A stretch of DNA of 64,000 bases from a phage: sequence record PZ495249.1. One strand, given 5' to 3'. This document shows positions 3,778 to 43,636 of this stretch, piece after piece (within the stretch, counting starts at the first letter, position 1; every line of letters begins with the position of its first letter). The notes under the pieces were generated by a model that had not been told where the DNA came from, ran no database searches, and saw only the letters and a program-made list of their open reading frames with translations. Position numbers and translations under genes: made by a program.

Positions 3778-3929
3778 AACTACGTATCACTGATATCCGA
3801 GCGTTTGACAACTATCACATAGCCTTGTCAATTCTTGGCGCACATAATGTAGGTGATGTGTTGGAGTATAACGAACATATGCCTATCTTCGATATCTTGA
3901 TCGAAAAAGGTTGGGTGCAAAAGGTATGA
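3774..3929 (+). CDS. hypothetical protein (51 aa)
   Basis: Track ORF 3714..3929 trimmed to ATG at 3774 after GGAGGAAG. Confidence 0.4.
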   Translation: MKLRITDIRAFDNYHIALSILGAHNVGDVLEYNEHMPIFDILIEKGWVQKV

Positions 3930-4270: not shown

Positions 4271-4281
4271 GGAGAGATAAC

Positions 4282-4449
4282 ATGTGGAGCACACCATCAA
4301 GAGGCCAACTGCCTAACCAAAACGAAGTTGTTGTGGCTGTCAGTCCAGAGGGTAAGGAATTGGAGATGTACCGAATTGGCAATCTGTGGTTCCCTGTCGG
4401 TGACACATGTTATGTCTACTGGACACCTGTAATGTGGAGGAATAAGTAA
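4282..4449 (+). CDS. hypothetical protein (55 aa)
   Basis: Track ORF 4267..4449 trimmed to ATG at 4282 after GAGGAGAG. Confidence 0.4.
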   Translation: MWSTPSRGQLPNQNEVVVAVSPEGKELEMYRIGNLWFPVGDTCYVYWTPVMWRNK

Positions 4450-5012: not shown

Positions 5013-5169
5013 GTACAATTTATATACTGTTTGCTCTGTTCACCTACGGTGAGAGTAACAGTTCTTTTGATAAGGAATTCAACTCACAAGGTGCTTGTAT
5101 CATGGCTATGAATGAAGGTGTCAGTAAGCGGATATTTACCCGCGCAATGTGCGTACCGAAGGGCTGATT

Positions 5170-5412
5170 ATGCGTATACCTGATGATTTTTATACCCACG
5201 AAGATACGTGGAGAAAGGCTCTTGAGCGTCTGATCGAACTGGAGCCAGTAACGGGTGAACCTGATGAAGATAACAGAGGGTTCTGGCAACATGAATTGAA
5301 TGCGTTCAACCGCGCCTATGCAGAACTTCATGAAGGTTGTCCTCATGATGGCGCTACCTACTATGATATGAGTGGGCGTGAACGCTGCGGAATGTGTGGA
5401 GGTGACATGTGA
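5170..5412 (+). CDS. hypothetical Cys-containing protein
   Basis: Track ORF 5149..5412 trimmed to ATG at 5170. Confidence 0.45.
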   Translation: MRIPDDFYTHEDTWRKALERLIELEPVTGEPDEDNRGFWQHELNAFNRAYAELHEGCPHDGATYYDMSGRERCGMCGGDM

Positions 5413-5600
5413 GTACACTGAAACGTGGAGACACTGTTATGTTGAAATTCCCATTAGGTGGTACTTGGAGAAAACTTCTTCTGGTAGAACAAACACCGTA
5501 CTTGGATAATAAAGTCGATGTAATCTACTTTGATACGCAAGAACGTATTTGTCGTGATCGCCTCCACATTGATCTTGTAGAGAAAGTAGGAGAAGATTAA
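5409..5600 (+). CDS. hypothetical protein
   Basis: Track ORF. Confidence 0.45.
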   Translation: MSTLKRGDTVMLKFPLGGTWRKLLLVEQTPYLDNKVDVIYFDTQERICRDRLHIDLVEKVGED

Positions 5601-5785
5601 TGAAAAGTTTTGTAGTTCCTTGGTTAGATTGTCCTTGCACATCTCATAATATTGAGGTAAGCTCGGAGAAAGGTGATGAACTCTATCTTTACTTTGGCGA
5701 TGAAGTGAAGTGTCTCGATTGTGGTCGAGAGGGTGTCATTGAAACAGATGATTGCTGCGCATACGCAGTGTGGGAGGATGATTGA
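5600..5785 (+). CDS. hypothetical Cys-rich (Zn-binding-like) protein
   Basis: Track ORF; CPC...CLDCG...CC. Confidence 0.45.
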   Translation: MKSFVVPWLDCPCTSHNIEVSSEKGDELYLYFGDEVKCLDCGREGVIETDDCCAYAVWEDD

Positions 5786-5961
5786 TGGCTGATTTCAGCT
5801 CGACAAAACGGAATGCTTCTCTTGAGGATTGGGGAGAAGCTCTTGAGTGTATGGTTGAACTTAACGGTAAATCGTTCGACATTACAGAAATGGAGATCGA
5901 GGCAGCTTATGAAGCATATAAGCGTGTAGACGATTTCTATTATGAAGAATGGGAGGACTGA
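5785..5961 (+). CDS. hypothetical protein (58 aa)
   Basis: Not in track; ATG overlaps upstream stop; fills gap before 5961. Confidence 0.35.
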   Translation: MADFSSTKRNASLEDWGEALECMVELNGKSFDITEMEIEAAYEAYKRVDDFYYEEWED

Positions 5962-6185
5962 TGAGTACAGCGATTTATGTGAAAGGTAACGATTTAAATC
6001 AAGAAATGCTATTCTCTTTCGGAGATGGTACAGACATTGATGTAATCTACGACGATGTGGTAGCGGGGCTGTTAAATCAAGGCTTCATCACTGTTACAGA
6101 CTTCATGGTAACTTCTTCTGAGTATCTCGATGTAGATCTATTAGAGATGATGGAAGCTGTGCAGAAAGAAGTGTACAACTGGTAA
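5961..6185 (+). CDS. hypothetical protein
   Basis: Track ORF 5949..6185 trimmed to ATG at 5961. Confidence 0.45.
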   Translation: MSTAIYVKGNDLNQEMLFSFGDGTDIDVIYDDVVAGLLNQGFITVTDFMVTSSEYLDVDLLEMMEAVQKEVYNW

Positions 6186-6194
6186 GGAGAAAGA

Positions 6195-7313
6195 ATGCAG
6201 CAAACAAATCCTACCCTATACGGGAAAGACTCGAAAGGTAATATCAAAGAGTGGTCTGTTTACACTGACGGCGCAACTGTGACGGTAGCTCACGGTCGTC
6301 TTGGTGGTAAGATCACCACTAAGTCCTATGAAGCGGAAGCTAAGAACGTTGGACGTTCCAATGAAACAACTCCGGCTGAACAAGCCGAATCAGAAGCCTT
6401 AGCCAAATGGACTAAGCAACTCAAACGTGGGTACTACCACACCATTGAAGAAGCGAAAGAGCATGAACCTTTCACGCCCATGAAATGCCAGGACTATAAA
6501 GACTTCTCACACAAAGTGAAGTTCCCTGGTTATGCACAATACAAGTTGAATGGCTTACGCTCCATGATCAACGATGATGGTGAATGCCTGTCCAAAGCTG
6601 GTGAAGTTTATAAGCTCCCTAACCACTGGTCGCCTATCCCTCAGTTTATTCAAGAAGATTTCGGATATCCGTTAGATGGTGAAGTGTTTGCTGGTCTTGG
6701 TGTTATGAGCCTACAGGTCATCAATGGTGCATGGAAGAAGTACAAACCAGGTATCACTGAGCAATTAAGTTACTACGTCTACGACATTCCAGTGCCAGAT
6801 TTGCCTTTCAAGAAACGTGTTGAATTCCTGAAAGACTTGGCAGAGATGATTGTGGATGCTGGTCTGGAAAACCTGATCCATGTTGTCCATTCCGAATACA
6901 TCGAAAACCAAGAGCAGTTAGACGCTTTCTATGAGAAAGCCCTGGCAGATGAGGCCGAAGGTATTGTATGGCGTAACGAAGACGGTACTTATGAGTTTGG
7001 TAAACGTTCCTATGATGTGATCAAACGTAAACCTCGTGCAACTATGGAAGTCAAGGTAACAGGTATGGTTATTGATAAAAATGGTGATGGGGTATTGACA
7101 GGGATTACAAAAGATGGTAAGATTGTCGAATTCCTGATGAGGAAAGATTCACATCCTACCATCAACTACCGCAAAGCAGAAAACGCCGTCAAACTTATCG
7201 ATCACTTTGTTGAAATTGAATACGAAGAGTTATCTGACGCTGGCGTACCTACAAAACCAGTTGGCATTCGTCTGAGACAAATGATCGAAGGTACATGGGA
7301 ACCTGCCGAATAA
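6195..7313 (+). CDS. ATP-dependent nucleic-acid ligase-like protein (putative DNA ligase)
   Basis: Track ORF; nucleotidyltransferase motifs KLNGLR (I, variant of KxDGxR), LDGEVF (III), EGIVWRNEDG (IV), VIKRKPR (V). Confidence 0.6.
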   Translation: MQQTNPTLYGKDSKGNIKEWSVYTDGATVTVAHGRLGGKITTKSYEAEAKNVGRSNETTPAEQAESEALAKWTKQLKRGYYHTIEEAKEHEPFTPMKCQDYKDFSHKVKFPGYAQYKLNGLRSMINDDGECLSKAGEVYKLPNHWSPIPQFIQEDFGYPLDGEVFAGLGVMSLQVINGAWKKYKPGITEQLSYYVYDIPVPDLPFKKRVEFLKDLAEMIVDAGLENLIHVVHSEYIENQEQLDAFYEKALADEAEGIVWRNEDGTYEFGKRSYDVIKRKPRATMEVKVTGMVIDKNGDGVLTGITKDGKIVEFLMRKDSHPTINYRKAENAVKLIDHFVEIEYEELSDAGVPTKPVGIRLRQMIEGTWEPAE

Positions 7314-7322
7314 GGAGAAAAC

Positions 7323-7505
7323 ATGTTTTACGCAATTTTATTTGTGTTGTTCCTGATTGTGTGCGCAATCTTCATTCTCGCTGAAAGCGAGAATAGAAGC
7401 CTCGTTACCGCAGTGGCACGAATCCTCGACTCCCTGTTTGCAGGGATCGGCGCGGCTGTCAGCACTTGGGCGCTGGCACAATACTTAACCAGTTTATTCA
7501 ACTAA
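7323..7505 (+). CDS. small hydrophobic membrane protein
   Basis: Track ORF; two hydrophobic segments. Confidence 0.5.
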   Translation: MFYAILFVLFLIVCAIFILAESENRSLVTAVARILDSLFAGIGAAVSTWALAQYLTSLFN

Positions 7506-7514
7506 GGAGAAAAA

Positions 7515-8243
7515 ATGATCGAAGGATTTTTCAAGGACATTAAAGTAGACAAGCAGTTTTTCATCGACGCAGCAAAGCATATCGTTGAGTGGAATGCGAA
7601 AGCTCGTGGTGGAGAAACTCCAGAGTTTACCCAAGAGATGTTCATTTCTCAGATCGGATTTGTCCGTGAAGAACTGAAAGAGTTCCAAGATGCAGCACAA
7701 CTTAACGATCATGTCGAAATGCTTGACGCAGCGGCTGATGTGTTTGTTGTGGCATCCTATCTGGCATTTATGTTCTGGGGAGAAGAGCGAGTTAATCTCA
7801 TGCTGTCTCAGAATGTAGGCGATGTTTTCCCGTCAAACATCTATGATGAGTTCAATCAGATCGATGCAACGTTCACTGAGGCTGCTCAGATGGCTATCAT
7901 GACTCTCGGTATTACCCGTATGGCTCGCGACACTCTGGTGAGATCTGTGTATAACGAGAAGAAAGTGGTGAAAGAAGTGCTGAAAAGCAATGACTCTAAG
8001 TATCCAACACGTAGACAAATTCTTGCAGTGTGGGAAACAAAGGACATTGATTTCGCACTGGAGCAAGAATGTGCAGCAATTGAAGATCGTAACAAAGACC
8101 GTCCAGAAGGTGCATATACCGGAGTTCATGCTGTCTATAATGAAAAGCAGAAGGTGTATGTATTCTTTGATGACAAAGGTAAAATTATGAAACCTTCCAC
8201 CTTCGTTAAACCTGATATTGGGGCTATCGTTGGAAAATCCTAA
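7515..8243 (+). CDS. hypothetical protein, possible MazG-like nucleotide pyrophosphohydrolase domain
   Basis: Track ORF; REELKEFQDA...EMLDAAADVF resembles MazG helices; weak. Confidence 0.4.
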   Translation: MIEGFFKDIKVDKQFFIDAAKHIVEWNAKARGGETPEFTQEMFISQIGFVREELKEFQDAAQLNDHVEMLDAAADVFVVASYLAFMFWGEERVNLMLSQNVGDVFPSNIYDEFNQIDATFTEAAQMAIMTLGITRMARDTLVRSVYNEKKVVKEVLKSNDSKYPTRRQILAVWETKDIDFALEQECAAIEDRNKDRPEGAYTGVHAVYNEKQKVYVFFDDKGKIMKPSTFVKPDIGAIVGKS

Positions 8244-20075: not shown

Positions 20076-20213
20076 ATGTTAGATGGTGATGTGTGCCAGG
20101 TTTGTGGTGGCACTGGTCAAGTTTATGTCGGCGGGGGCTTTAGCCCTTGCTGGACTTGTAACGGCTTCGGAGTAATTCCGAAACAAGAGGAGGAAGAAAA
20201 GGATGGGGATTGA
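20076..20213 (+). CDS. small Zn-ribbon-like protein (45 aa)
   Basis: Not in track; CQVCGG...CWTCNG. Confidence 0.35.
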   Translation: MLDGDVCQVCGGTGQVYVGGGFSPCWTCNGFGVIPKQEEEEKDGD

Positions 20214-20529
20214 TATTGGCTGGAGAATGGTACAGGGTGCTACACTGGATGTGTGGGAAGAGGCTTTCGGAGAAGATGAAACATTTCTGGAAGATTATGA
20301 CGGAGACATGGCAGGTTTCTTGGAAGATCACTTGAATGTTGTAAGGGTATCGCCGTGGTTTGATGCAGATAGCTCAGATTGTATCTTCGGTGTTAAACTT
20401 GCAGGTGGTGATTACTCCAAGGATATAGATCTTGCTGAACTTGCTGTTAAGGCAAAAGAAATAGCACACGATCTCAAGAGTAAGTATGGTATTGATACCA
20501 CTACCATTTGTAGTCAGAACGTCTACTAA
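20203..20529 (+). CDS. hypothetical acidic protein
   Basis: Track ORF. Confidence 0.5.
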   Translation: MGIDIGWRMVQGATLDVWEEAFGEDETFLEDYDGDMAGFLEDHLNVVRVSPWFDADSSDCIFGVKLAGGDYSKDIDLAELAVKAKEIAHDLKSKYGIDTTTICSQNVY

Positions 20530-20538
20530 GGAGAAAGA

Positions 20539-21534
20539 ATGCGATACCTGGTGACAGGTGGGCTTGGATTTATTGGGAGCGCGGTAGTGCGCTCTCTGCA
20601 TAAAAACCCACTTAACGAAATCTATGTTGTTGACAAATGGGGCTATGCCTCCGATCCACGTAATCTTACACTCACCCCAGATGTAAGATTCTGTAAGTTA
20701 GACTTGACAGACCTCGTGTTAACTGTTAAGATGCTGGCTGACATTAATCCAGATTACATTATCCACTTGGCGGCTGAAAGCCATGTTGACAATTCAATCT
20801 CTGCTCCAAAAGCATTCATTGAGTCAAATGTAATCGGTACGTTCAATCTGCTTGAAGCAGTGCGGTACATGGGTAACAGATCAAAGCTCAAGAAGTTCCT
20901 ACATGTCTCCACAGACGAAGTGTACGGCGATTTGAGCGTAGAAGATGTTCCGTTTACCGAAGACACACCTTATGCCCCAAGTAGCCCGTACAGCGCGTCT
21001 AAGGCAGCGAGTGACCATCTGGTACAAGCTTGGCATCGTACCTACGGAATTCCAACCGTAATTACCAATTGCTCGAACAACTTTGGTGCATATCAGCATC
21101 CAGAAAAGTTGATTCCCCGTGTAATTACGAGTATCATGATCGGTAAACAGATTCCTGTCTATGGGAACGGTTTACAAGTAAGGGATTGGTTGTTTGTCGA
21201 TGACCATGTAGATGCCTTGCTTCTGGCACTCACCGAAGGTAAGGTGGGAGAAACATATAATATCGGTAGTCGCAACCCTCGTACCAATATGGAAGTAATT
21301 TATATGATCTGTGATTATATGGATGCTGTCCATGCAGACAAGGGTTTCTATCCTGCATCAAATCTTATTAAATTCGTTAGTGATCGCCCTGGTCATGACA
21401 CTCGTTATGAGATTGATCCTACGAAGTTGGAGACAGAGTTAGGATGGGCTACTGAGGGTACATTCGAAGAGAAACTTTATCAAACCATTGAGTGGTATAT
21501 TGCTCACGACTTATGGTGGCAGAATAAAGTTTAA
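20539..21534 (+). CDS. rmlB: dTDP-glucose 4,6-dehydratase
   Basis: Track ORF; [33 protein letters not shown]; close to enterobacterial RmlB. Confidence 0.9.
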
Positions 21535-21542
21535 GGAGGAGC

Positions 21543-22469
21543 ATGAAAGGTATTATCCTTGCGGGTGGCAGTGGCACTCGTTTGTATCCGGTGACTAAAG
21601 GGGTAAGCAAGCAATTGCTCCCCATTTACGATAAACCGATGATCTACTATCCACTATCTGTATTAATGCTGGCAGGGATAAACGATATCTTAATTATCAC
21701 AACACCCGAAGATCAGCGTAATTTCCAACAGCTTCTTGATGACGGAGAAGACTTAGGAATCAGCATCACCTATGCAACTCAGGATCAACCAAGAGGGTTG
21801 GCAGAAGCCTTTATTATCGGTGAAGATTTCATTGGTGATGATTCTGTAGCCCTTGTCCTCGGAGATAATTTATTCTTTGGACAAAGTTTCGGTACTCTCT
21901 TACATTGTGCAAAAGAGCATGTGGAATTCTATGGCGGAGCCGGAGTATTTGGTTATCGAGTGAACGATCCTGAACGATTCGGTGTTGTAGAGTTCGATGA
22001 CTCAGGTAAGGTTGTGAGTATTGAAGAGAAACCTGTTAATCCTCGCAGCAATTATGCAGTTACTGGACTTTATTTCTACGACAATTCTGTGATTCAGAAA
22101 GCCAAAGAAGTGCAACCTTCTGCTCGTGGTGAATTGGAGATTACAGACATTAACGAAATGTACCTTAAAGAACGTGCGCTCCAAGTGTGGAAACTGGGAA
22201 GAGGTTTCACTTGGCTTGACACAGGTACACATGCAAGTTTAATGGAGGCATCTCAGTTTGTGCATACAATTGAGAAACAGCAAGGAATGAAACTCGCTTG
22301 CCTTGAAGAAATTGCATTTATGAATGGGTGGATTACAGCAGAGCAACTTATTCTGACAGGAACTGCCCTGGCTAAAACAGAATATGGACAATATCTGCTT
22401 TCATTAGGAGGGGTTAGATGGAAAGCACAATTAACGTCAGAGAAACCAGCATTGAAGGTCTTGTCGTAA
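21543..22469 (+). CDS. rmlA: glucose-1-phosphate thymidylyltransferase
   Basis: Track ORF; [16 protein letters not shown]...[17 protein letters not shown]. Confidence 0.9.
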
Positions 22470-22987
22470 TAACACCGAGGGTGTTCGGTGATGACCGAGG
22501 ATTTTTCCTTGAGTCTTTCAACCAAGCCCGATATGATAACCTTATTGGTGAACACACGTTTGTTCAAGATAACCACTCCCGTTCTACGAAAGGAGTCCTC
22601 CGTGGACTCCACTACCAAGAAACAAATCCCCAGGGGAAATTAGTGAGATGCACAAGCGGCATGGTATTTGATGTGGCTGTGGACTTACGTGAAGGTAGTC
22701 CGACCTTCGGAGAATGGGAAGGTGTTGTACTTAGTGAACAAAACAAAACGCAATTCTGGATTCCACCAGGATTCGCTCATGGCTTTGTCGTTATCTCAGA
22801 CGTAGCCGATTTCGAATACAAATGCACTGAATATTACGATCCAACCTCGGAACGCAGTTTACTCTGGAATGATCCTGATGTAGCTGTCGATTGGGGATTT
22901 GACTTAATCTTTGGTGATGAAAATTATCAGCCTATTCTATCTCAGAAAGATCGAGAGGCCAAAACCCTACGGGAGATTTTTGGATGA
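22418..22987 (+). CDS. rmlC: dTDP-4-dehydrorhamnose 3,5-epimerase
   Basis: Track ORF; cupin RmlC-like sequence; overlaps rmlA 3' end by 52 nt. Confidence 0.85.
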
Positions 22988-23820
22988 AACGATATTTAGT
23001 ATTGGGTGGTAATGGTCAATTAGGCCAAGCACTCAATAAAGTGAAGCCGGAAGATGTAGATTTAATTTATCCTGAACGTTGTGATATTACCGATTTCAAA
23101 CAGGTGAAGGATCTAATCGTACAAACTATGCCGGAAGCAGTTATCAACTGCGCAGCATATACAGCCGTCGATAAAGCCGAAGAGGATATGCAGACTGCAA
23201 TTAGTGTTAATGCATACGGTGCTGCAAATATTGCGAAAATCTGTGGTGAACTTTACATTGACTTAATTCACATTTCGACGGATTATGTCTTTGATGGTTC
23301 ATTCCCTGGTATTGAGGGTGCTGAAACAAATCCGTTAAATGTCTACGGTTACTCCAAGCGTTTCGGTGAAGAATTAGTTCACGCGGTTCATCCTGGGGCA
23401 TTAATTATCCGTACAGCTTCTGTGTATAGCGAATTCGGTAACAACTTCCTGAAAACTATGTTAAGCCGCTACAACGGCGGTCAACGTGAGTTTGATGTTG
23501 TCTGCGATCATTACTCCTGTCCAACATATGCTCCAGATCTTGCTGAAATGATTTTCACAATGTTGGAATATGGTGTTGGTGGTCGTATTCTTCATTACGC
23601 AGGTAAAGAATATTTAAGCTGGTATGACTTTGCGACACGTATCTTCTGGGAAATAGATATGACGGTTAAAGTAAACCCAGTATCTGCTGCTCAGTATAAC
23701 TCCAAGGCAGTACGACCTGCCAAATCCTATCTTGAAACCAAAGGGTTCCTGACTCCAAAACCAGTAGCCCACGGTATTAACGAATCACTGAAAGTTCTAT
23801 TAAATAAGGAGAGAGAATGA
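22984..23820 (+). CDS. rmlD: dTDP-4-dehydrorhamnose reductase
   Basis: Track ORF; GGNGQLG, STDYVFDG, YGYSK. Confidence 0.85.
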   Translation: MKRYLVLGGNGQLGQALNKVKPEDVDLIYPERCDITDFKQVKDLIVQTMPEAVINCAAYTAVDKAEEDMQTAISVNAYGAANIAKICGELYIDLIHISTDYVFDGSFPGIEGAETNPLNVYGYSKRFGEELVHAVHPGALIIRTASVYSEFGNNFLKTMLSRYNGGQREFDVVCDHYSCPTYAPDLAEMIFTMLEYGVGGRILHYAGKEYLSWYDFATRIFWEIDMTVKVNPVSAAQYNSKAVRPAKSYLETKGFLTPKPVAHGINESLKVLLNKERE

Positions 23821-24083
23821 ATTTTGTAATCTATGGTAAACCTGACTGTCAATTCTGCACTATGGCTAAGCAGCTATTAGAGATGCGAGGTCAGGAGTTT
23901 AATTACCTCACCCTGGATGTAGATTACACTCTTGATCACATGCAAGCAGTGGTCGTAGAGAAAACAGGAATTCCACCACGTACATTCCCACAAATTTTAG
24001 TGCAGGAATCGGACGTTGCGGAGTACAAGCACGTAGGAGGTTTCACCGAACTACGTGATTTCATGGCTCAGATTGCGGAGTAA
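23817..24083 (+). CDS. glutaredoxin/NrdH-like redoxin
   Basis: Track ORF; CQFC active site in thioredoxin-fold-sized protein. Confidence 0.65.
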   Translation: MNFVIYGKPDCQFCTMAKQLLEMRGQEFNYLTLDVDYTLDHMQAVVVEKTGIPPRTFPQILVQESDVAEYKHVGGFTELRDFMAQIAE

Positions 24084-24087
24084 CAAT

Positions 24088-24234
24088 ATGAAAGGTAAAC
24101 AGAAACGTAAGATCTTTTCTCGTGCTTTGGCAGCGGAGCTAAAGTCCAACATCAAGAAAACGAAACCAAAACGTGAACCATCTCCAGAACACGCAATGTT
24201 CGACGAACTGGATCACGGCGAGGTTGACGCATAA
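24088..24234 (+). CDS. small basic hypothetical protein (48 aa)
   Basis: Not in track. Confidence 0.3.
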   Translation: MKGKQKRKIFSRALAAELKSNIKKTKPKREPSPEHAMFDELDHGEVDA

Positions 24235-24241
24235 GGAAAAC

Positions 24242-24742
24242 ATGGCTAAAGTAGTAGATGAGTTTGATATGCTACGCCTTGACGAGGGACTAAAGCTCAC
24301 CGTCTATACAGATACCGAAGGGTATTGGACAGTGGGTATTGGTCATCTCTTAACGAAAGTCAAAGATAAAGCGGTTGCTATCGCTGAACTGGATAAGCTG
24401 GTAGGTCGTAAGACCAATGGTGTTATCACAGAAGACGAAGCACGTACAATCTTCAAGAAAGACGTTGAAAAGGCTATCAAGCAGGTTAAACAGAGTAAGA
24501 TTCTATCTCCGATTTACGATAAGGTGAGTCCTACTCGTAAAATGGCAATTGTCAATATGGTATTCCAAATGGGGATTGCCGGAGCAGAATCTTTCCAAAA
24601 TAGCTTGACATTAGTGAGCAATTCGTACTATACTCAGGCTGGTATCAATTTACGTAAAAGTAAGTGGTACAAACAAACGCCTAATCGTGCAGAGCGAGTT
24701 ATCAAGGTTCTTACATCTGGAACACTTGATGCTTATAACTAA
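24242..24742 (+). CDS. endolysin, T4-type lysozyme (GH24 muramidase)
   Basis: Track ORF 24173..24742 trimmed to ATG at 24242; MLRLDEGLKLTVYTDTEGYWTVGIGHLL and WYKQTPNRAERVI nearly colinear with T4 lysozyme (recalled). Confidence 0.85.
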   Translation: MAKVVDEFDMLRLDEGLKLTVYTDTEGYWTVGIGHLLTKVKDKAVAIAELDKLVGRKTNGVITEDEARTIFKKDVEKAIKQVKQSKILSPIYDKVSPTRKMAIVNMVFQMGIAGAESFQNSLTLVSNSYYTQAGINLRKSKWYKQTPNRAERVIKVLTSGTLDAYN

Positions 24743-25569: not shown

Positions 25570-26061
25570 ATGGCATTTGTTGAAATAGGTAGAAGCGGTA
25601 TTGACGAGTGTTACCAAGCGGGTTTAGTAAAGCCGAACGAGTTCCGGCAGATTTATGTAAACAAGATTGAACAAGAGATCGCTCTCTTACTTGAAAACCT
25701 AACACTTAAACAAAAGTGGGGAATGTTCAAATCTTGGTTAAAGAATGAGGATTGGATTTTATCCCATTACCAGGAACTTTCTGATAGTAAAGACGGACTG
25801 TTTGAGTGTATAATAGAGATAGCCGCCTCAAATCCACAACTTCTTCATATTGATGAAGAAGATTCCAAACTACTTTTCCTAAGCAGTATTTTCCACAAGA
25901 AATCCTTACTCGTTCGAGAGTGCAGTGATTTATTTAATCACCCGCTCACCCGTACCGAGAAGATTCTGGTGGACAAAGAAACGTTACGCGCAATTGACTA
26001 TCTACGAAAATACGTGAACGGTGGAAAAGCAGTTCTTAAAACATTGCAGGAGGAAGAATAA
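25570..26061 (+). CDS. hypothetical protein
   Basis: Track ORF. Confidence 0.5.
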   Translation: MAFVEIGRSGIDECYQAGLVKPNEFRQIYVNKIEQEIALLLENLTLKQKWGMFKSWLKNEDWILSHYQELSDSKDGLFECIIEIAASNPQLLHIDEEDSKLLFLSSIFHKKSLLVRECSDLFNHPLTRTEKILVDKETLRAIDYLRKYVNGGKAVLKTLQEEE

Positions 26062-26750
26062 TGACAACGATTATTGCAACAAAGACTAAGATTCTAAGCG
26101 ACGGTAAAACTACCGTAGGCAATCGTGTAGACGATTACGACTTTAAGAAAGTACGTAAGATTGGGGATTATCTGGTCGGTGGCGCTGGTCGTCTAACCTC
26201 CATCCTCACATTCTTCGCCTGGTTTGAGCAGAATCTGCAATGTCAAGCGGCACAAGAATCTATCCCAGGGTTGATGATTCAATCAGATCCTGACAAGGAC
26301 GACGAAGACTTCATTGCGTTAGTTGTCCATCCTGACGGTAAAATTTTCATCCACGAAGGTGCTGATCCTCGTCGAGCATTCCCAATCGAGCGTGAATACT
26401 ACGCTGTTGGTAGTGGTGCAGACTTCGCATTAGCGGCGCTTGATGCCGGAGCCACTCCAGAACAAGCAATGGAAGTTGCAAAACTCCGTGATGCTTTCTC
26501 GGGTGGTGAAACTTTCGTAGAAGAACGCGAAGAAATTGTTGACATTACTGATGAAGATCTGAGAAACTTCTCAAGAGAGCAGCTTCTGAATCTGCTTCTT
26601 ACTGGTTCTCCAGAAGGTGATGCAGCACAACAGTTGCTGGCTACGCCGGAAGAAGAACATCCTAAAGGTGATACTGGTGAAATGGGAGTTTCTTGTGGTA
26701 TTCCTGGTGTTGCAGGTGCTACTTTTACAACTCCTTCACTGGGCGCTTAA
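26061..26750 (+). CDS. HslV/ClpQ-like Ntn-hydrolase peptidase with C-terminal extension
   Basis: Track ORF; MTTIIATK...DG.TTVGN...KKVRKIG...GGAG and AVGSGADFALAA match HslV (recalled). Confidence 0.7.
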   Translation: MTTIIATKTKILSDGKTTVGNRVDDYDFKKVRKIGDYLVGGAGRLTSILTFFAWFEQNLQCQAAQESIPGLMIQSDPDKDDEDFIALVVHPDGKIFIHEGADPRRAFPIEREYYAVGSGADFALAALDAGATPEQAMEVAKLRDAFSGGETFVEEREEIVDITDEDLRNFSREQLLNLLLTGSPEGDAAQQLLATPEEEHPKGDTGEMGVSCGIPGVAGATFTTPSLGA

Positions 26751-26785: not shown

Positions 26786-27226
26786 ATGTTAGAAATTCCA
26801 GCTTCATTCATGGATAAGAACGTCCATGCATACCAGCAAATCTGTAAGCGAGCAAAGAATACACTGGATGCTATTGTCAGCAAACGTTATGTCATTTCTG
26901 AAAAGAAATGGTTCCGTACTATTCACTACGAAGTGAACGTTTTCGGTGAATGCAAACACAGAACAGGATCTACCGAGAGAATTCTGGAATGGATGCTTGA
27001 AAACGACCATATTTCCTCTCAAGACTATCAACTGCTCAAGTTCTACGACATGTCCAACATGGTAGATATTGTCATCGACAATCTCCAGGAACGCCGTAAC
27101 GAGAGCGATAAGGTGTCTGTGAATATGGATGAAATGCAACTCCTGTATTACATTGGAACGTTCACAGAAGACCCCACTTTAACGAAAGAGGAACTTCTTT
27201 TTGGCGAACAAGTACGACCGACCTGA
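26786..27226 (+). CDS. hypothetical protein
   Basis: Track ORF with AAGGAGGAG RBS. Confidence 0.5.
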   Translation: MLEIPASFMDKNVHAYQQICKRAKNTLDAIVSKRYVISEKKWFRTIHYEVNVFGECKHRTGSTERILEWMLENDHISSQDYQLLKFYDMSNMVDIVIDNLQERRNESDKVSVNMDEMQLLYYIGTFTEDPTLTKEELLFGEQVRPT

Positions 27227-27710
27227 GTCGGATTATTACCCAACACCACAAAAGTGTATTGAAGCACTGTTCAGTGTTATTGATTTTAAAAATTTGAGAG
27301 AAGAGGGTTGGCACTTTGCCGAGCCATGCCGAGGGGAAGCATCTGCGATTTATCAGCACTTCCCCGAAGGTTCAGAATATTGCGAGTTAGAAGAGGGTAA
27401 AGATTACTTTGCCAGTGTATGGGAAACCAAACCGGACATTATAATCACAAACCCTCCATTCAAACTGGCATTAGAGTTCTTGCAAAAGAGCTTACAAGAA
27501 GCAGACGTATCTATCTACCTGTTACGTTTGGGATTTCTGGAATCTAAGAAACGTCGAGATTTCCATAAAGCCAACCCTCCAACCAACTTGATTATTCTCT
27601 CTGAGCGACCATCGTTTGTTGCGGGTGGCACAGACAAGACAGCGTATGCCTGGTACGTCTATGATCCAAAACAAAGGCTTGGGCTTACCCAACCTTTCTA
27701 TTTTGTATAA
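27201..27710 (+). CDS. phage-type DNA N6-adenine methyltransferase-like
   Basis: Track ORF (TTG start); SDYYPTP and NPPF motifs. Confidence 0.55.
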   Translation: MANKYDRPESDYYPTPQKCIEALFSVIDFKNLREEGWHFAEPCRGEASAIYQHFPEGSEYCELEEGKDYFASVWETKPDIIITNPPFKLALEFLQKSLQEADVSIYLLRLGFLESKKRRDFHKANPPTNLIILSERPSFVAGGTDKTAYAWYVYDPKQRLGLTQPFYFV

Positions 27711-27973: not shown

Positions 27974-28636
27974 ATGAAATTCGTACTTTACCATCGTCTT
28001 TCCAAAAAGAAACAGCAAGGCAACCAATACGGTATTGAATCACAGGAAGTTGATATTCAACGTTTCCTGGACTCGCAAGAGAACTATACCGTGATCGGGA
28101 CTTTCGCTGAATACTACTCTGGTAAAGGTGACTGGAAGCAACGTAGAGAACTGGTGAAAGCCGTGGAACTCTGCAAAGCAACTGGTGCAACACTTGTGGT
28201 TGCAAAGGTTGACCGTTTAGGTCGTAACACTGCCTCAGTTGCAACGCTTCTCGAAATGGTGAATGTTCGTATTGCTACGATGCCCTCCGCTGAGAATATG
28301 GTGATTAATATCCTCGCCGTTCTCGCAGAAGAAGAAGCACGAGCGATCTCTGATCGTGTGAGAAAAAGTTTGAAAGTTGCCAAAGAGAAAGGTATACTCC
28401 TTGGTGCTGCAAATGAAAAATACAATCGTACAGATTACTCTAAGAGAGAGGAATCAAAGCGCTCTATGGAATTTGCCATGAGCATGAAAGATTCCCTTGT
28501 TGCTTTCCGTTCAATGAACACACCGTTCATGACAATTGCAAAGCATCTTAACGAAAGCGGTAAAACTACTATCCGAGGCAGCAAGTTTGATGCGAAAGCT
28601 GTCCAGCGCTTATGTTCTAAGTTAGAAATCAACTGA
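27974..28636 (+). CDS. serine recombinase (resolvase/invertase family)
   Basis: Track ORF; YHRLSKKKQ...GIESQ catalytic-Ser region, VAKVDRLGRN, C-terminal HTH-like segment. Confidence 0.7.
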   Translation: MKFVLYHRLSKKKQQGNQYGIESQEVDIQRFLDSQENYTVIGTFAEYYSGKGDWKQRRELVKAVELCKATGATLVVAKVDRLGRNTASVATLLEMVNVRIATMPSAENMVINILAVLAEEEARAISDRVRKSLKVAKEKGILLGAANEKYNRTDYSKREESKRSMEFAMSMKDSLVAFRSMNTPFMTIAKHLNESGKTTIRGSKFDAKAVQRLCSKLEIN

Positions 28637-34079: not shown

Positions 34080-35009
34080 ATGATTATGGTTGGTAGCCGT
34101 GGTTTAGAGATTCAATTAGAACGGGAGGCTAAGAAATTTTATCGCCCTTGTCTTGATCTTGACTTTCTTTGCACAGAGAAGGAGTGGAGTATAGCATTCA
34201 TCCGTTACACCCACGAAGAAGGCGTTGAGCTTGTGGAACGTACTGGCAACAAAGGTCATGTCAAACTGACAGATGGGACACATATCGAGTTTGATATTGC
34301 TCAACCTGGCGATAGCACAGATATTCTGATCCAATATTGCAAGGCAAACCCACAGAGTATGTTCCTTAACAACGGTGATTTCGTGGCTCCGGTGGATGTT
34401 CTGTATCTGCTGAAAATGAGTCATCGTTATAAGAAGAATAGCCCTCATTTCTTCAAGACCATGAATGATATCCATTTCATGCGTTCTCTTGGGGCTAAGA
34501 TCCCAGTGGAATTAGAAGAAGTGTTTAAGCTGCGTGAGAAAGAGACTTACGATTACTCACACCCAAATCTGGATGTGAAGAGCAAAGACTTCTTCAAAGG
34601 TGATGAAGTGCCGTATGTTTACGATCACGACACGATTCATGAAGCAGTGGCGGTGTTGGGTGTACCTGCATACAAATCTTACATGAAAGATGACAGCGAA
34701 GTGATGACTTCCAAAGAGAAGTTCTTTGAACAGGAAAATCATATCCGTCTTCTCGGTGTGTACGAAGAGAGCTGCGTACTGGCACTGGAACGTTCGCAGA
34801 TTCCGTTCAATTTCGAGGTTCCGGCTCGTCAGAGTTTTGTTATGGCACTTAGTAAAGTTTGCACATCGATCACTTCCGGCTGGTTCCGTGAGTACGCCTG
34901 GGAGAACTTCGGGGTTGTCATGAAGTTCTATGAAAGCATGGGTGAAACTGATTACATTGAGCGATTCAAAGCTAATCAACACCTGGTTAAACCATTCGAG
35001 GGGGAATAA
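34080..35009 (+). CDS. hypothetical protein (309 aa)
   Basis: Track ORF with GAGAGGAGAAAC RBS; no confident domain. Confidence 0.5.
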   Translation: MIMVGSRGLEIQLEREAKKFYRPCLDLDFLCTEKEWSIAFIRYTHEEGVELVERTGNKGHVKLTDGTHIEFDIAQPGDSTDILIQYCKANPQSMFLNNGDFVAPVDVLYLLKMSHRYKKNSPHFFKTMNDIHFMRSLGAKIPVELEEVFKLREKETYDYSHPNLDVKSKDFFKGDEVPYVYDHDTIHEAVAVLGVPAYKSYMKDDSEVMTSKEKFFEQENHIRLLGVYEESCVLALERSQIPFNFEVPARQSFVMALSKVCTSITSGWFREYAWENFGVVMKFYESMGETDYIERFKANQHLVKPFEGE

Positions 35010-35399
35010 ATGGGTTATTTAAATGATACATACATCACACCTACTAAGGATCAATTAAGTATGGCTCTTATTAAGGTGAAACGTGTGCGCGAACTCTACA
35101 AACCAATTAATGAGCGTTTGGAGAAGGAGACAGTAGAGGTTAAAAGTTGGTGGGGTTTACGCCGTAAGGTGATGACTAAAGATCAGCACATCCGTAAAGC
35201 TAACGAAAATTCTTTCATGCCGTTTTATGGTCGTGCATTTCTGCTCGGATACATAACAGCAGAAGAATACCAAATCTGCCGTTTCCTGATGGAGGCTCCA
35301 GGAGTGAAGACACTCCAAAAATGGGAAACAGCGGAGAGAGTATATCTTTGTGAAGATGACCACAGACAGTTGATGTTTGCTTTAACTGAGGAGATTTAA
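35010..35399 (+). CDS. hypothetical protein
   Basis: Track ORF. Confidence 0.5.
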   Translation: MGYLNDTYITPTKDQLSMALIKVKRVRELYKPINERLEKETVEVKSWWGLRRKVMTKDQHIRKANENSFMPFYGRAFLLGYITAEEYQICRFLMEAPGVKTLQKWETAERVYLCEDDHRQLMFALTEEI

Positions 35400-36076
35400 T
35401 GTCGAAAGTAGTATGGTGTTTATTTGATGGTAGTGGTATTATGGGATTACCCTGGGCTGAGGCTGGATACCAAGTTTATTGCTTTAATGCCAGTAGCGGA
35501 GATCACGGAGAGTATGAAATTAAAGTGGATCACCCTTTGATCACTTACGTCGATACTTGGATTGACTCTACCTTTGATCCAACAGGTATGGGTGACAACG
35601 GCGGTGATGCTCCTACGTTTATTATCGGCTTCCCGCCTTGTACAATGCTCGCTGGTAGTGGAGAGCAACACGAGCGTACTGCGGAAGAGATCGAAGAGGC
35701 GCTTCAAAACGTCCGTATCGTCGAAACTTTGGGTAATAAGTATGGTGTGCCGTGGATGATTGAGAATCCAGTGGGTAAATTGTCCACACTCTGGCGTAAG
35801 CCGGACTACTACTTCGATCCGTATGAGTTTGGTGGTTATCTCCGAAAAGAGGAAGGTAGTTATCACCCTAAAATGCCAGTACAGGATGCCTATACGAAGA
35901 AAACCTGCCTATGGGTAGGCAATGGTTTCGTATTCCCTGATAAAAAACCCGTAGAACATATTGGTTTCTTCTGGGGATGGCGTTATCTCGGTGGTAAGAG
36001 TAATCGAACAAAACAGTTGCGATCTCTCACCCCTCGTGGGTTTGCTCGCGCAGTGTTTAAGGCTAATAGGAGGTAG
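35399..36076 (+). CDS. compact C5-cytosine methyltransferase-like protein
   Basis: Track ORF; LFDGSGIMG (motif I-like), GFPPC (Pro-Cys motif IV), ENPVG (motif VI); only 225 aa. Confidence 0.5.
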   Translation: MSKVVWCLFDGSGIMGLPWAEAGYQVYCFNASSGDHGEYEIKVDHPLITYVDTWIDSTFDPTGMGDNGGDAPTFIIGFPPCTMLAGSGEQHERTAEEIEEALQNVRIVETLGNKYGVPWMIENPVGKLSTLWRKPDYYFDPYEFGGYLRKEEGSYHPKMPVQDAYTKKTCLWVGNGFVFPDKKPVEHIGFFWGWRYLGGKSNRTKQLRSLTPRGFARAVFKANRR

Positions 36077-36077
36077 T

Positions 36078-36191
36078 ATGTGGAGAGGGTGGCAGGGCGC
36101 ACTGATTCTTGTGTGCATACCAATTAGTTTTCTTGGTTGGGCTTTTTGGGAATTTGTATTCTGGTTGTTCCACAACTTACATTGGGGGTGA
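36078..36191 (+). CDS. small hydrophobic membrane protein (37 aa)
   Basis: Track ORF 35961..36191 trimmed to ATG at 36078 after AGGAGG. Confidence 0.35.
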   Translation: MWRGWQGALILVCIPISFLGWAFWEFVFWLFHNLHWG

Positions 36192-36193
36192 AA

Positions 36194-36835
36194 ATGACAA
36201 AGAAACTGGTGGCGTATCAAGTTGATCGGGACGATTACGAAGGTAGTGTAATTGTTTTTGACTCTCACGGCTTGGCTGCTCGCCGCCGTGGGGCTTCGAT
36301 GTTAGACCTTGGCGGAGAAGATGAGTATTGCCAGGTAAGACGTGTAAAAGATTTCGATCAATATGCGGAAAAGGGCTACGTTCCTTATAAGGCTTTGCTG
36401 GAACATGGTTGGTGGTTACACTCGGCTCATGATGGTCGAAAAATCACAGAGGACTACTGCTACGATGAATACGAGGACGAGGAGGTAGAAACACCTGAAC
36501 TTGTCTTCTTCCAGAACGAGCAGGGTGTGTGGTTTGATTGGGATGAAATGGAACGCCATGCCTATTCTATTAACGAAGCAAAAGATCGCTTTGATTGGTG
36601 GATTGAAACGGTTATGCGTTGCTACCCACATCTTACCTTCACTAAGTTTGAAGGTGGACCTGGACGTATTACTCACACAGCCAACTTCACCTTCCCTGGT
36701 GCTCAGTATGGCGGTGGTCACATCCGTTGGGATTGGGAGGAAGGTGTAACACCAGATCCTAAAGAACATTTCTCCAGTTGGGTTGCCACAGGAGATAAAG
36801 AAGCATTTGACAAGTACCTCGAAAGTGTGGTATAG
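36194..36835 (+). CDS. hypothetical protein
   Basis: Track ORF 36137..36835 trimmed to ATG at 36194. Confidence 0.5.
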   Translation: MTKKLVAYQVDRDDYEGSVIVFDSHGLAARRRGASMLDLGGEDEYCQVRRVKDFDQYAEKGYVPYKALLEHGWWLHSAHDGRKITEDYCYDEYEDEEVETPELVFFQNEQGVWFDWDEMERHAYSINEAKDRFDWWIETVMRCYPHLTFTKFEGGPGRITHTANFTFPGAQYGGGHIRWDWEEGVTPDPKEHFSSWVATGDKEAFDKYLESVV

Positions 36836-36889: not shown

Positions 36890-37450
36890 ATGGGATTTGA
36901 TGACATGTTGGACTATGAGGGAAACTGCGTTAAAGAAGCTCTGGCCTTACCAGAACTGGAGATCACCATCACAGTGTATGACACTTATTCCGATTGTGAA
37001 ACTTGCGGTGCATACTGGAGCAGAGTTCTTGAAGTAGATGGAGACTTAGGGGAATTCCAGAGTGGTGATCGTGCAAGTTGTTTGGGTAGTAATGATGACG
37101 GTACTTATCACGAAGTTGCTCAATGGATTAACGCGCGACTTGAAGAGCATGGTCGTCCTGTTCCTGTACTATTGACACCGGATGCAATGCTGCAAGCTGA
37201 TAACGAGTATTACGCTCAAGCGGCTTTGGTGAACTATGATTATAATCATCCTTCGCTTGAGGCATTAGGACATAAAGCAGGTTGTCTGTCAGATGCTTTT
37301 GATGCATACTATACGTTAGACAGTCTGAAACGATTGTATTCTGCATTCGGTGTGACCATTTATGATGATCACAAGGCAGATGAGGTTTACGATGCCAGCG
37401 ATTGGGGCGATTATGAAGATAATGAGGAAGAAGAATGCCAAGACGACTGA
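36890..37450 (+). CDS. hypothetical acidic protein
   Basis: Track ORF 36863..37450 trimmed to ATG at 36890 after GGAGGA. Confidence 0.5.
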   Translation: MGFDDMLDYEGNCVKEALALPELEITITVYDTYSDCETCGAYWSRVLEVDGDLGEFQSGDRASCLGSNDDGTYHEVAQWINARLEEHGRPVPVLLTPDAMLQADNEYYAQAALVNYDYNHPSLEALGHKAGCLSDAFDAYYTLDSLKRLYSAFGVTIYDDHKADEVYDASDWGDYEDNEEEECQDD

Positions 37451-38250
37451 TTGTAATTTCTGGTGCAGGACTTAGCGCCGATAGTGGTGTACGTACATTC
37501 CGTACCGACACCGAAAGTGGAAAAGCACTTTGGGACGAATACGATCTTGCAGAGGTTTGTGATATTGGAGCATTCCAAGCTGGCTATCGTCGCCGTACAT
37601 CACCAGATGTTCCGGTTGTTGGTGGTATCGACGATGAAGGGATGGATCTGTACGAGAAGACAAACAACTTCTACAACAAACGCCGTGTGGAACTTGCAAC
37701 TGTAGAGCCTAACGCTGCACACCTTCAAATCGCTAAGTGGTTTGCAATGGCTCCTGAGCGTGTCTACAACATCACGACTAACGTTGATGACCTGTTGGAA
37801 CGTGCTGGCGTTGCTCGTGAATCTGTACTTCACGTCCACGGCTACTTACCAGAAATCCGTTATCGCTTAGAACCTGGTTCACAGGAACAACTTGTGGATG
37901 TAGGGTACGCTCATGTCGATATTGACGCATTCCATTGGACAAAACCTAACGTTGTGTTCTTTGGTGAGGCTGCACCACTCTATAATGACATGTACGCACT
38001 GTTCGACACGCTAACATCTCAGGATATGGTGATTGTGGTTGGCTGCTCTAACCAAGTGATCAACTTCAACTGGGAACTCTTCCCGATGCTTAACATCGGA
38101 ACTAAGATGGTTGTGGTGAACCCTGGGGTTAACTACCTGGAGACAGAAATGTATCAAGAACGGGGCGTGTTTGTTTATCGCGCCGGAGCCGCAGAAGCGT
38201 TCAGCAATGAGCACTTCATTAAGATGGTAGAGGATCACCTGAATGGTTAG
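37435..38250 (+). CDS. SIR2-family (sirtuin/CobB-like) NAD+-dependent protein lacking the Zn-ribbon cysteines
   Basis: Track ORF; GAGLSADSGVRTFR, PNAAHLQIAKW, TTNVDDLLERAG, HVHGY, VVFFGE align with CobB (recalled); no CxxC pairs. Confidence 0.75.
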   Translation: MPRRLIVISGAGLSADSGVRTFRTDTESGKALWDEYDLAEVCDIGAFQAGYRRRTSPDVPVVGGIDDEGMDLYEKTNNFYNKRRVELATVEPNAAHLQIAKWFAMAPERVYNITTNVDDLLERAGVARESVLHVHGYLPEIRYRLEPGSQEQLVDVGYAHVDIDAFHWTKPNVVFFGEAAPLYNDMYALFDTLTSQDMVIVVGCSNQVINFNWELFPMLNIGTKMVVVNPGVNYLETEMYQERGVFVYRAGAAEAFSNEHFIKMVEDHLNG

Positions 38251-43003: not shown

Positions 43004-43636
43004 TTATTTGTATGGATAAAACAGATTGTTACCTTCAATCTCTTTGTGGTAGATCGGTTTATTCTTGGCAATATATGCCAGCTTTTCAGCAGTTTGGATG
43101 TTTGGTGCAGGGTTTTCACCGAACACATCCTCAGAGTGGATGTAGCTCAACCCACGGATAGGGAATCCCCAACCAGCATCAGACCCAGTAAGACCTGCCT
43201 TTATTGCACGATGTGATCGTGCGGCATCTTCGTAACCGTAACGGTTATATTCAAGATTATACCCGCCAATCGTTTCCATTGCAAGTTTATCTTGATAAAC
43301 GAAACAACCAAGAGCACTGAACCAGTAAGTGATATCACTCTCAGCATACAAGAACTCACCACCGAAGATATCTGGCAGAACCATGTAGTGAATACCATTT
43401 GCTTGCGCTTCCTGGATGAAATAATCTTCCCAACCCAGACGAGTTGGATAACAGTCGTCATCAAAGATGAATACGTGATCGTAGCCATCAAAGTGAGCAA
43501 GCACCTGATTACGTGCATGACCAGGACCAAGCCGCTCTATATCTGTGTAGATAAAGGTTTCGTGCGTAGTTTTCTCAAAGAACTTCGGATTAATCTCACG
43601 AAGTCCCATAGTGATTACGCCAACGCCAATTTTCAT
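43004..43636 (-). CDS. GT-A fold (family-2-like) glycosyltransferase
   Basis: Track ORF; DDD (DxD) motif and GGYNLEYNRYGYEDAARSHR. Confidence 0.6.
   Translation of the reverse strand: MKIGVGVITMGLREINPKFFEKTTHETFIYTDIERLGPGHARNQVLAHFDGYDHVFIFDDDCYPTRLGWEDYFIQEAQANGIHYMVLPDIFGGEFLYAESDITYWFSALGCFVYQDKLAMETIGGYNLEYNRYGYEDAARSHRAIKAGLTGSDAGWGFPIRGLSYIHSEDVFGENPAPNIQTAEKLAYIAKNKPIYHKEIEGNNLFYPYK

Follow-up and report, generated by a model that had tools for sequence, protein, structure and literature searches.

A dTDP-L-rhamnose module of the phage lineage in a divergent member of the Stephanstirmvirinae, and its possible use in glycosylating a non-DNA acceptor

What would a phage do with activated rhamnose of its own making, and where would it have obtained the genes? 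These questions are raised by a 64,000-nucleotide stretch of phage DNA (sequence record PZ495249.1; hereafter the window), in which four contiguous genes on the plus strand appear to specify all of the enzymes for deoxythymidine diphosphate (dTDP)-L-rhamnose synthesis. From the 5′ end, these are rmlB (20539..21534, +; dTDP-glucose 4,6-dehydratase, 331 aa), rmlA (21543..22469, +; glucose-1-phosphate thymidylyltransferase, 308 aa), rmlC (22418..22987, +; dTDP-4-dehydrorhamnose 3,5-epimerase, 189 aa) and rmlD (22984..23820, +; dTDP-4-dehydrorhamnose reductase, 278 aa). Gene identities were set by the NCBIfam curated cutoffs of the generic equivalog models, all of which were exceeded: RmlB scored 427.6 bits with TIGR01181 (cutoff 365), RmlA 469 bits with TIGR01207 (cutoff 361), RmlC 252 bits with TIGR01221 (cutoff 156) and RmlD 250 bits with TIGR01214 (cutoff 224). 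In an alignment with the enzymes of Escherichia coli K-12, Citrobacter phage Tr1 and Klebsiella phages, the nucleotide-binding and catalytic motifs were intact in all four proteins, with RmlB keeping GxxGxxG, STDEVYG and YSASK, RmlA keeping GGSGTRL, RmlC keeping RGLHYQ, KLVRC and YKCTEYY (the conserved His, Lys and Tyr set), and RmlD keeping STDYVF and YGYSK. An earlier, sequence-only reading of this DNA had called the same four genes at these positions, and it had done so correctly.

The junctions within the cluster are tight, in a manner compatible with translational coupling. Nine nucleotides separate the upstream open reading frame (ORF) from rmlB, and eight, including the sequence AAGGAGG, separate rmlB from rmlA; ATGA overlaps are found where rmlC meets rmlD and where rmlD meets the glutaredoxin gene that follows. 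The overlap between rmlA and rmlC is longer, at 52 nt, because RmlA carries a C-terminal extension of ∼20 residues that is missing from the Tr1 and E. coli enzymes. This extension is kept in homologues of 308–309 aa on ∼150-kb contigs, as well as in two independent assemblies. From these features, the four genes would appear to form a real and intact dTDP-L-rhamnose pathway.

In order to place the window, we used megablast against 50,697 phage records and found it to belong to the Stephanstirmvirinae (phi92/phAPEC8 group), lytic myoviruses with genomes of ∼150 kb. The nearest DNA relatives in this set were four Klebsiella phages at ∼77–83 % identity, and no GenBank phage record reached ≥ 80 % coverage of the tested window segments; on this evidence the phage appears to be a distinct, fairly divergent new member of the subfamily. 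The gene arrangement itself, whose novelty the sequence-only reading had not judged, is already in the literature: Olsen et al. (2020) described the rml cluster and proposed a role in DNA modification, Maffei et al. (2021; PMC8594841) mentioned a 'putative dTDP glycosylation machinery' for phi92-like phages, and both Vitt (2024) and a 2026 paper mention the cluster at the level of annotation. In the phi92/phAPEC8 subfamily the module is a published hallmark that is annotated as a matter of routine; as a discovery the present case is minor, adding one more, fairly divergent, member. There are, however, three refinements to be made, concerning the origin of the module, the part of it that is indispensable, and the proposal that it modifies DNA, set beside the other kind of acceptor towards which the accompanying glycosyltransferases point.

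With regard to origin, the enzymes had been described from sequence as very close to those of enterobacteria, and a recent host source had been considered; neither idea was borne out. Amino acid identity to the E. coli K-12 proteins is 50–51 % for RmlB (RfbB/RffG), 64–66 % for RmlA (RfbA/RffH), 55 % for RmlC (RfbC) and 34 % for RmlD (RfbD). Scores against the enterobacterial-specific models all fell below the respective cutoffs for RmlB (392 versus 698 for PRK10217; 382 versus 649 for PRK10084), RmlA (426 versus 588 for PRK15480) and RmlD (127 versus 308 for PRK09987). At the DNA level, a sensitive blastn search of 5,426 complete E. coli genomes returned a best match of 63–67 % that covered only part of rmlB–rmlA, and the gene order in the window is B-A-C-D, as opposed to rfbB-D-A-C in K-12. 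Phage proteins are considerably closer. Pairwise identity to Tr1 is 70 % for RmlB, 80 % for RmlA, 80 % for RmlC and 62 % for RmlD; RmlA is likewise 80 % identical to the phi92-type enzyme and 74–80 % identical to those of the members infecting E. coli, whilst RmlC and RmlD reach 92 and 84 % identity, respectively, with Klebsiella phage phi1_175008. When 5.8 billion proteins were searched with RmlA, the 57 best matches were 72–99 % identical and lay mostly on contigs of ∼140–155 kb or on shorter fragments; named Stephanstirmvirinae phages were among these 57 and none was named as cellular, the first named cellular matches being from Aeromonas and Vibrio at ∼70 % identity. The grouping with phages is thus one of ranked matches for RmlA and of pairwise identity for RmlB, RmlC and RmlD, rather than of trees.

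Composition and synteny agree with this picture. The GC content of the cluster is 0.429, compared with 0.438 for the phage background, relative synonymous codon usage correlates with that background at r = 0.80, GC content at third codon positions also matches, and no compositional break was seen at the cluster borders. Additionally, the same cluster was found between nrdB and the glutaredoxin gene in Tr1 and in > 100 annotated genomes of E. coli phages, with synteny kept in phi92, phAPEC8, Tr1 and a Pseudomonas phage; it also occupies the same slot, with identical gene lengths, in two independent metagenome assemblies, and the arrangement is likewise unchanged on a 152,674-bp scaffold. As the nearest relatives of RmlA are phage contigs, we consider the rml module to be, by all appearances, ancient in the phage lineage and vertically inherited there, rather than a recent capture from a host.

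The distribution of the module within the subfamily suggests which part of it matters most. Using tblastn, RmlC was found in ∼130 Stephanstirmvirinae records, and RmlA at 73–80 % identity in phi92, Justusliebigvirus, Phapecoctavirus, Tr1, one Serratia phage and one Pseudomonas phage, with no RmlA match in the Klebsiella phages. The four Klebsiella phages phi1_175008, KP2025, FKP3 and KP13-26 are missing the segment 20530..22404, i.e. rmlB and most of rmlA: blastn homology with the window runs over 20200–20530 and resumes at 22405, 13 nt 5′ of the rmlC start, and the annotation of phi1_175008 accordingly lists rmlC–rmlD only. The difference has the appearance of a clean two-gene indel with intergenic boundaries, and rmlB–rmlA would seem to have been lost only in this Klebsiella-phage sister lineage, which kept rmlC–rmlD. 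Megablast coverage had initially suggested that Justusliebigvirus also has rmlC–rmlD only; this was ruled out by tblastn, which detected RmlA at ∼80 % identity in phi92 and its relatives. The same searches returned RmlC/RmlA matches in five records labelled as phages of Campylobacter jejuni (MG065639, MG065645, MG065656, MG065689 and MG065650; phages A150, A145, C3, A110a and B15, respectively). Their identities equal those of the E. coli Justusliebigvirus and Phapecoctavirus records and their genome sizes are similar, and they are likely to be mislabelled or contaminant entries.

On the host side, rmlB/rmlA-like DNA was detected by blastn in 5,426/5,426 E. coli genomes, with a median of two loci, whilst rfbC was detected in 2,348 of the 5,426 (43 %), a count that is a lower bound at blastn sensitivity. 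The enterobacterial common antigen (ECA) cluster of K-12 includes rffG and rffH, and the presence of rmlB/A-like DNA in every E. coli genome fits a universal ECA rffG/rffH pair with an optional rfb copy. Enterobacterales hosts would then always supply the RmlA and RmlB steps, yielding dTDP-4-keto-6-deoxyglucose through RffH and RffG, but roughly half of E. coli strains would be without RmlC and RmlD, and hence would provide no dTDP-L-rhamnose. Since all E. coli possess rmlB/A-like genes but only ∼43 % have a detectable rfbC, the phage module would remove this dependence on host genotype. The same logic, which draws on these counts and on established pathway knowledge, would account for the finding that rmlC–rmlD are never lost, and rmlB–rmlA would be dispensable wherever host ECA genes supply the intermediate, because the host always makes that intermediate and often cannot finish dTDP-L-rhamnose. 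As such, the indispensable part of the module would be rmlC–rmlD, whose steps are missing from many hosts.

A phage that makes its own activated rhamnose might be expected to glycosylate something, as the sequence-only reading had reasoned, and this part of its argument is reasonable, being supported by glycosyltransferases (GTs) with intact motifs that the lineage itself encodes; the choice of acceptor is less settled. Only one GT was found in the window, a small enzyme of the GT-A, GT2-like type (43004..43636, −; 209–210 aa; phrog_2456, E 2e-51; weak GT2 and GT7C Pfam signals), which we refer to as GT-A. Across 48 homologues a DDD motif is invariant and a YG-x-ED motif is also present, and the AlphaFold model has a GT-A fold with a pLDDT of 95.9. 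Its structural neighbours are GT2-like (K4CP, GlfT2, GalNAc-T1, WrtF, TarP/TarS and SpsA), and include the dTDP-rhamnose-using RmlT and viral capsid GTs. Relatives carry a cassette of two to four GT genes adjoining the DNA polymerase gene: one ∼150-kb relative, of which ∼140 kb was inspected, has two more GTs beside primase and DNA polymerase, and Justusliebigvirus VEcB has four consecutive GT genes at the DNA-polymerase locus. One cassette member, GT-B, is core to the subfamily (144 records) and has GT4-like structural neighbours (GlgM, PimB′, TarM, PglA, BshA and SdgB). GT-A was also considered as a subfamily core gene and rejected, as true orthologues (60–80 % identity) were found in only six records; in members infecting E. 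coli the best match to GT-A (∼37 %) is a paralogue inside the GT cassette. RmlA (86 %), GT-A (82 %) and GT-B (66 %) each have a match on a contig of 154,881 bp, possibly one and the same contig. Searches of PDB sequences with three GTs returned nothing significant, and PADLOC identified no defence-system relatives of the Rml or GT proteins.

Outside the subfamily, lambdoid prophages of Klebsiella variicola and Serratia carry a pair of GT-A (51–67 % identical to that of the window) and GT-B genes in the late operon, between the lysis genes and the terminase/capsid genes. In the K. variicola prophage, where GT-A is 51 % identical to the window protein, the pair is immediately preceded by a gene for an RmlB-like NDP-hexose 4,6-dehydratase, which is 33 % identical to window RmlB and keeps STDEVYG and YSASK. 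These cassettes lie at segment positions 3225–6499 in the K. variicola prophage and 5589–7670 in that of Serratia sp. M24T3; 3′ of the pair, the former also has a gene for a 235-aa protein of unknown function. Judged from gene content, the prophage arrangement appears to link this pair of GTs with 6-deoxyhexose chemistry in another phage lineage, and GT-A and GT-B together look like a mobile glycosylation cassette common to unrelated phage types.

Based on these observations, we propose the following route. RmlA would convert glucose-1-phosphate and dTTP to dTDP-glucose, RmlB would convert this to dTDP-4-keto-6-deoxyglucose, and 3,5-epimerization by RmlC followed by reduction by RmlD would give dTDP-L-rhamnose, the four genes being packed together with those for ribonucleotide reductase, ThyX and glutaredoxin and probably co-expressed with them. 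The product would most likely be used by the phage GTs, i.e. GT-A (43004–43636, −) and the GT4-like cassette of the relatives, which together would assemble a glycan containing rhamnose on an acceptor other than DNA. We regard the flow of dTDP-L-rhamnose to the phage GTs as probable on balance, and a non-DNA acceptor as likely with rather greater confidence; that the acceptor is a phage-encoded protein, most probably of the virion, is a fair distance from assured and we hold it as a possibility somewhat short of probable. The complete proposal, in which Stephanstirmvirinae decorate virion proteins with a rhamnose glycan built entirely from phage-encoded parts (four donor enzymes and three to four transferases), is accordingly tentative. 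That the GT toolkit is conserved, has several members and is found in unrelated prophages beside a 4,6-dehydratase points to a glycan acceptor other than DNA. An acceptor intrinsic to the phage is suggested by the conservation of the GTs, at 60–67 % identity, among phages that infect E. coli, Klebsiella, Citrobacter and Pseudomonas, hosts whose surface glycans differ widely; the host-independent supply of donor, and the position of the prophage pair beside head genes in a late operon, point in the same direction. Between a virion protein and the host envelope the evidence is thin.

Several observations weigh against this proposal. In the literature to mid-2026 we found no experimental paper on the glycosylation target of any member, and we know of no glycosylated virion protein in the Stephanstirmvirinae. 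GT-A has no detectable similarity to the GTs gp108, gp109 and gp110 of mycobacteriophage Che8 (BLASTP E 0.018 to 1 or worse), its mycobacteriophage homologues being uncharacterized enzymes distinct from these three; the Che8 system, which we had considered as evidence, is thereby left as a weak analogy. GT2 and GT4 folds, as assigned from the models, are equally typical of envelope polysaccharide synthesis, and as donor specificity cannot be read from a fold, the GTs may use other sugars. Because the GT-B cassette lies outside the 64-kb window, its presence in this phage is deduced from relatives. Moreover, the location of the cluster among nucleotide-metabolism and replication genes is what led others to propose DNA modification. 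One candidate acceptor, a Ser/Thr-rich tail at the end of the tail sheath protein, was set aside as evidence, as its occurrence does not follow that of the system: in Klebsiella phage phi1_175008 (gene 35016–36422) this tail is Ser/Thr/Asn-rich (…NRTSNSTTSNSSTTSS), it is weaker in Justusliebigvirus W22, Vequintavirinae without rml genes differ only weakly, and Phapecoctavirus ESCO13 lacks it despite having the complete system.

Of the alternatives, remodelling of the host envelope survives best, although we consider it unlikely. Here, the phage GTs would put rhamnose on the lipopolysaccharide (LPS) core, the O-antigen or another envelope glycan, as a result of which receptors could be hidden, superinfecting phages kept out or progeny prevented from sticking to debris. 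Most of the near structural neighbours of the GTs do build envelope glycans (K4CP, GlfT2, TarP/TarS, RmlT, AvpGT, PimB′, TarM and PglA), and rhamnose is common in O-antigen and in LPS core, K-12 core glycoforms with rhamnose being cited in PMC12548472. The receptors of relatives are LPS core and surface glycans (PMC8594841), and the homologous GT pair resides in temperate prophages, where surface-converting morons are common. Set against this is the strictly lytic lifestyle of these phages, as little new envelope material would surface within one infection cycle, and the identity of 60–67 % among GTs from phages of hosts with very different surface glycans, a Pseudomonas phage included, with which a host-specific acceptor is hard to reconcile. 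Furthermore, no flippase, polymerase or membrane-embedded GtrB/C-type partner was found in the window or in the annotation of the relative.

A role in DNA hypermodification, with rhamnose placed on a modified base as protection from host nucleases in the manner of the glucosyl-hydroxymethylcytosine of T4, seems to us less probable still. It was proposed by Olsen et al. (2020) and repeated by Vitt (2024), and there are grounds for it: the cluster lies among nrdAB, thyX and the glutaredoxin gene, the GT cassette of relatives abuts helicase and DNA polymerase genes, MazG-like pyrophosphatases and a 5′-nucleotidase of the kind that sometimes accompany base replacement are present, and many ORFs have no assigned function. 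The thymidylate synthase, however, is ThyX, and no ThyA-family dNMP hydroxymethylase was found in the window. A scan of window ORFs > 180 aa, which could miss small or novel ORFs, detected no hydroxymethylase or TET/JBP dioxygenase, and none is annotated in the ∼140 kb inspected of the ∼150-kb relative; no route by which a base could acquire a hydroxyl acceptor is therefore evident. The structural neighbours of GT-A and GT-B have glycans, teichoic acids or proteins as their substrates, and neither enzyme resembles the T4 α- or β-glucosyltransferase, both of which were absent from the top 50 of these neighbours. In addition, phi92-like phages, their complete machinery notwithstanding, are 'exceptionally susceptible' to restriction–modification (RM) systems of types I, II and III (PMC8594841). 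The phage carries several DNA methyltransferases instead, with at least two genes in the window (27201–27710, + and 35399–36076, +) and five annotated in relative PQ360875.1, which suggests that methylation, and not glycosylation, may be the DNA-modification strategy of the lineage. A reading in terms of rhamnosylated DNA is thus without a visible enzymatic route and conflicts with the published restriction sensitivity. The sequence-only reading had named DNA, a virion protein and host surface polysaccharide as targets; the first is disfavoured by these results, and the other two cannot be confidently separated.

It is also conceivable, although most improbable, that no sugar is transferred and that the enzymes instead divert or tie up the dTDP-sugars of the host. 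They could drain dTDP-4-keto-6-deoxyglucose from ECA and O-antigen synthesis, or dTDP-rhamnose could feedback-inhibit host RmlA/RffH and so spare dTTP. RmlA is known to be feedback-inhibited by dTDP-L-rhamnose, the cluster lies together with genes for dNTP supply, and the minimal pair that is kept, rmlC–rmlD, acts on the ECA branch-point intermediate made by rffG/rffH. Most members nevertheless keep rmlA and rmlB, which would raise rather than spare dTTP use, and the maintenance in the lineage of three to four GTs with intact catalytic motifs points to real sugar transfer. Finally, the idea that a host rfb operon was recently captured, or that host and phage DNA were joined during assembly, could draw on the bacterial type of the enzymes and on a GC content (0.43) similar to that of E. 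coli rfb genes, but is refuted by the 34–66 % protein identity to K-12, by DNA identity of at most 63–67 % across 5,426 E. coli genomes, by the differing gene order, by borders that show no compositional break, and by identical synteny in > 100 phage isolates and two independent metagenome assemblies, which also excludes the assembly artefact that had been entertained from sequence.

The surroundings of the cluster were also as first read, with nrdB on the upstream side and glutaredoxin, lysozyme and phoH downstream, as judged from the ORF list and profile matches. In full, the order 5′ of rmlB is nrdA, a small ORF, nrdB and a conserved 108-aa ORF, and that 3′ of rmlD is glutaredoxin, lysozyme and PhoH, which places the rml genes within the nucleotide-metabolism module of the window. 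The 108-aa ORF between nrdB and rmlB (20203..20529, +; phrog_15453, E 7e-33) is present at the same length in the independent assemblies and has an orthologue immediately 5′ of rmlC in Klebsiella phage phi1_175008; its stop codon forms the left edge of the rmlB–rmlA indel. The glutaredoxin gene (23817..24083, +; 88 aa, CQFC motif) matched glutaredoxin models at E 1e-11, below cutoff, and the Pfam Glutaredoxin family matches the identical gene in an independent assembly; the protein probably works with the neighbouring ribonucleotide reductase and not in sugar synthesis. A scan for promoters gave no signal over shuffled sequence (37 versus 29.9 ± 6), and a terminator scan found only one strong terminator-like hairpin, 3′ of nrdA. 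For the lysozyme gene (24173–24742, +), the mechanical ORF starts at a GTG and specifies 189 aa, whilst near-identical contigs call a distinct 48-aa ORF followed by a protein of 166 aa; translation probably begins close to position 24242.

Elsewhere, the gene content of the window agrees with its placement in the Stephanstirmvirinae, with genes for DNA ligase, RdgC, ThyX, a phosphoribosyl pyrophosphate (PRPP) synthetase-like protein, SIR2 and PhoH; DNA methyltransferase genes, one for an HslV-like peptidase and numerous small ORFs are also present. The PRPP synthetase-like gene lies at 980–1915 (−) and the SIR2-family gene at 37435–38250 (+), and relative PQ360875.1 has genes for nicotinamide phosphoribosyltransferase, nicotinamide mononucleotide adenylyltransferase and a PnuC-like transporter (at 50–53 and 125–127 kb). 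Together these may form a phage NAD+ salvage set, possibly one that counters NAD-depleting host defences. A serine recombinase/DNA invertase is predicted at 27974–28636 (+), with the Resolvase family matching in a near-identical contig, in a phage group that is regarded as strictly lytic; its target is perhaps an invertible tail-fibre segment. Also kept in relatives are the HslV-like peptidase homologue (26061–26750, +), a protein with two CapR homology domains (51346–52329, −) and a DUF7275/DUF7277 protein (34080–35009, +). The interval 55720–57690 comprises ∼2 kb without any ORF ≥ 70 aa, tRNA or Rfam match, Rfam and tRNA scans of the whole window having found nothing. It is rich in short palindromic repeats, with at least five motifs of the type GTTAG-N3-4-GCTAAC and four copies of AATGAGAATCATTCTCA, and the GC skew locally flips sign at 57–58 kb; these features suggest a regulatory or origin-like region lying between blocks of small genes.

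If virion proteins were indeed the acceptor, phages of Gram-negative bacteria would gain their first example of a self-sufficient virion-glycosylation system, one that would work in any host regardless of O-antigen genotype. Such a glycan could bear on how stable the particles are, how they adsorb to or escape from host glycans, or how antibodies recognize them; as phages of this group are popular therapy candidates with a very broad host range, glycosylation of the particle would be of practical relevance.

Among known systems, the closest are the rml clusters of other Stephanstirmvirinae (the phi92 gp065/gp066 region, phAPEC8, ESCO5/ESCO13, Tr1 and PsgM04F), which match the window in all four enzymes, in their order and in their slot. 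The window differs from them in its best DNA identity of ∼77–83 %, with nearest DNA relatives that have rmlC–rmlD only, in the 20-aa C-terminal extension by which its rmlA overlaps rmlC, and in its GT-A gene (phrog_2456), which stands alone in a small-gene block at 43 kb but in VEcB lies inside the GT cassette. Bacterial rfb/rml operons (K-12 rfbBDAC; rffG/rffH) share the enzyme families, chemistry and catalytic motifs, whereas the cluster in the window has no neighbouring genes for an O-antigen flippase, a polymerase or GTs. The DNA glucosylation system of T-even phages, comprising the dCMP hydroxymethylase gp42 and α- and β-glucosyltransferases (AGT and BGT), is similarly located among nucleotide-metabolism and replication genes, and this is the analogy used in the literature; in the window, by contrast, a hydroxymethylase was looked for without success, the folds of the GTs differ from those of T4 AGT and BGT, and relatives are RM-sensitive. 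T4 also draws on host UDP-glucose and, to our knowledge, encodes no sugar-nucleotide pathway. Virion glycosylation has been reported for the mycobacteriophages Che8, Corndog and Myrna (Freeman et al., 2023, as summarized in PMC12363180 and PMC11256854). Che8-type phages and Stephanstirmvirinae alike have phage-encoded multi-GT cassettes and a lytic cycle in which these would act, and GT-A matches 549 mycobacteriophage records, its homologues (27–31 % identity, E ∼1e-13) lying in multi-GT cassettes of Cluster F and Cluster C phages, as a domain of Pacc40 gp98 and as one gene of a five-GT cluster in Bixzunavirus. Unlike the window, the mycobacteriophages had no rml genes in the regions inspected. 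A parallel for the self-encoded donor is instead provided by giant viruses: although their hosts are eukaryotic, their donor is UDP-L-rhamnose, homology to the window is not detectable and the likeness in fold is that of GT-A enzymes generally, chlorovirus PBCV-1 (A064R) and Mimivirus (UDP-L-rhamnose enzymes) encode rhamnose pathways of their own and glycosylate their capsids or fibrils.

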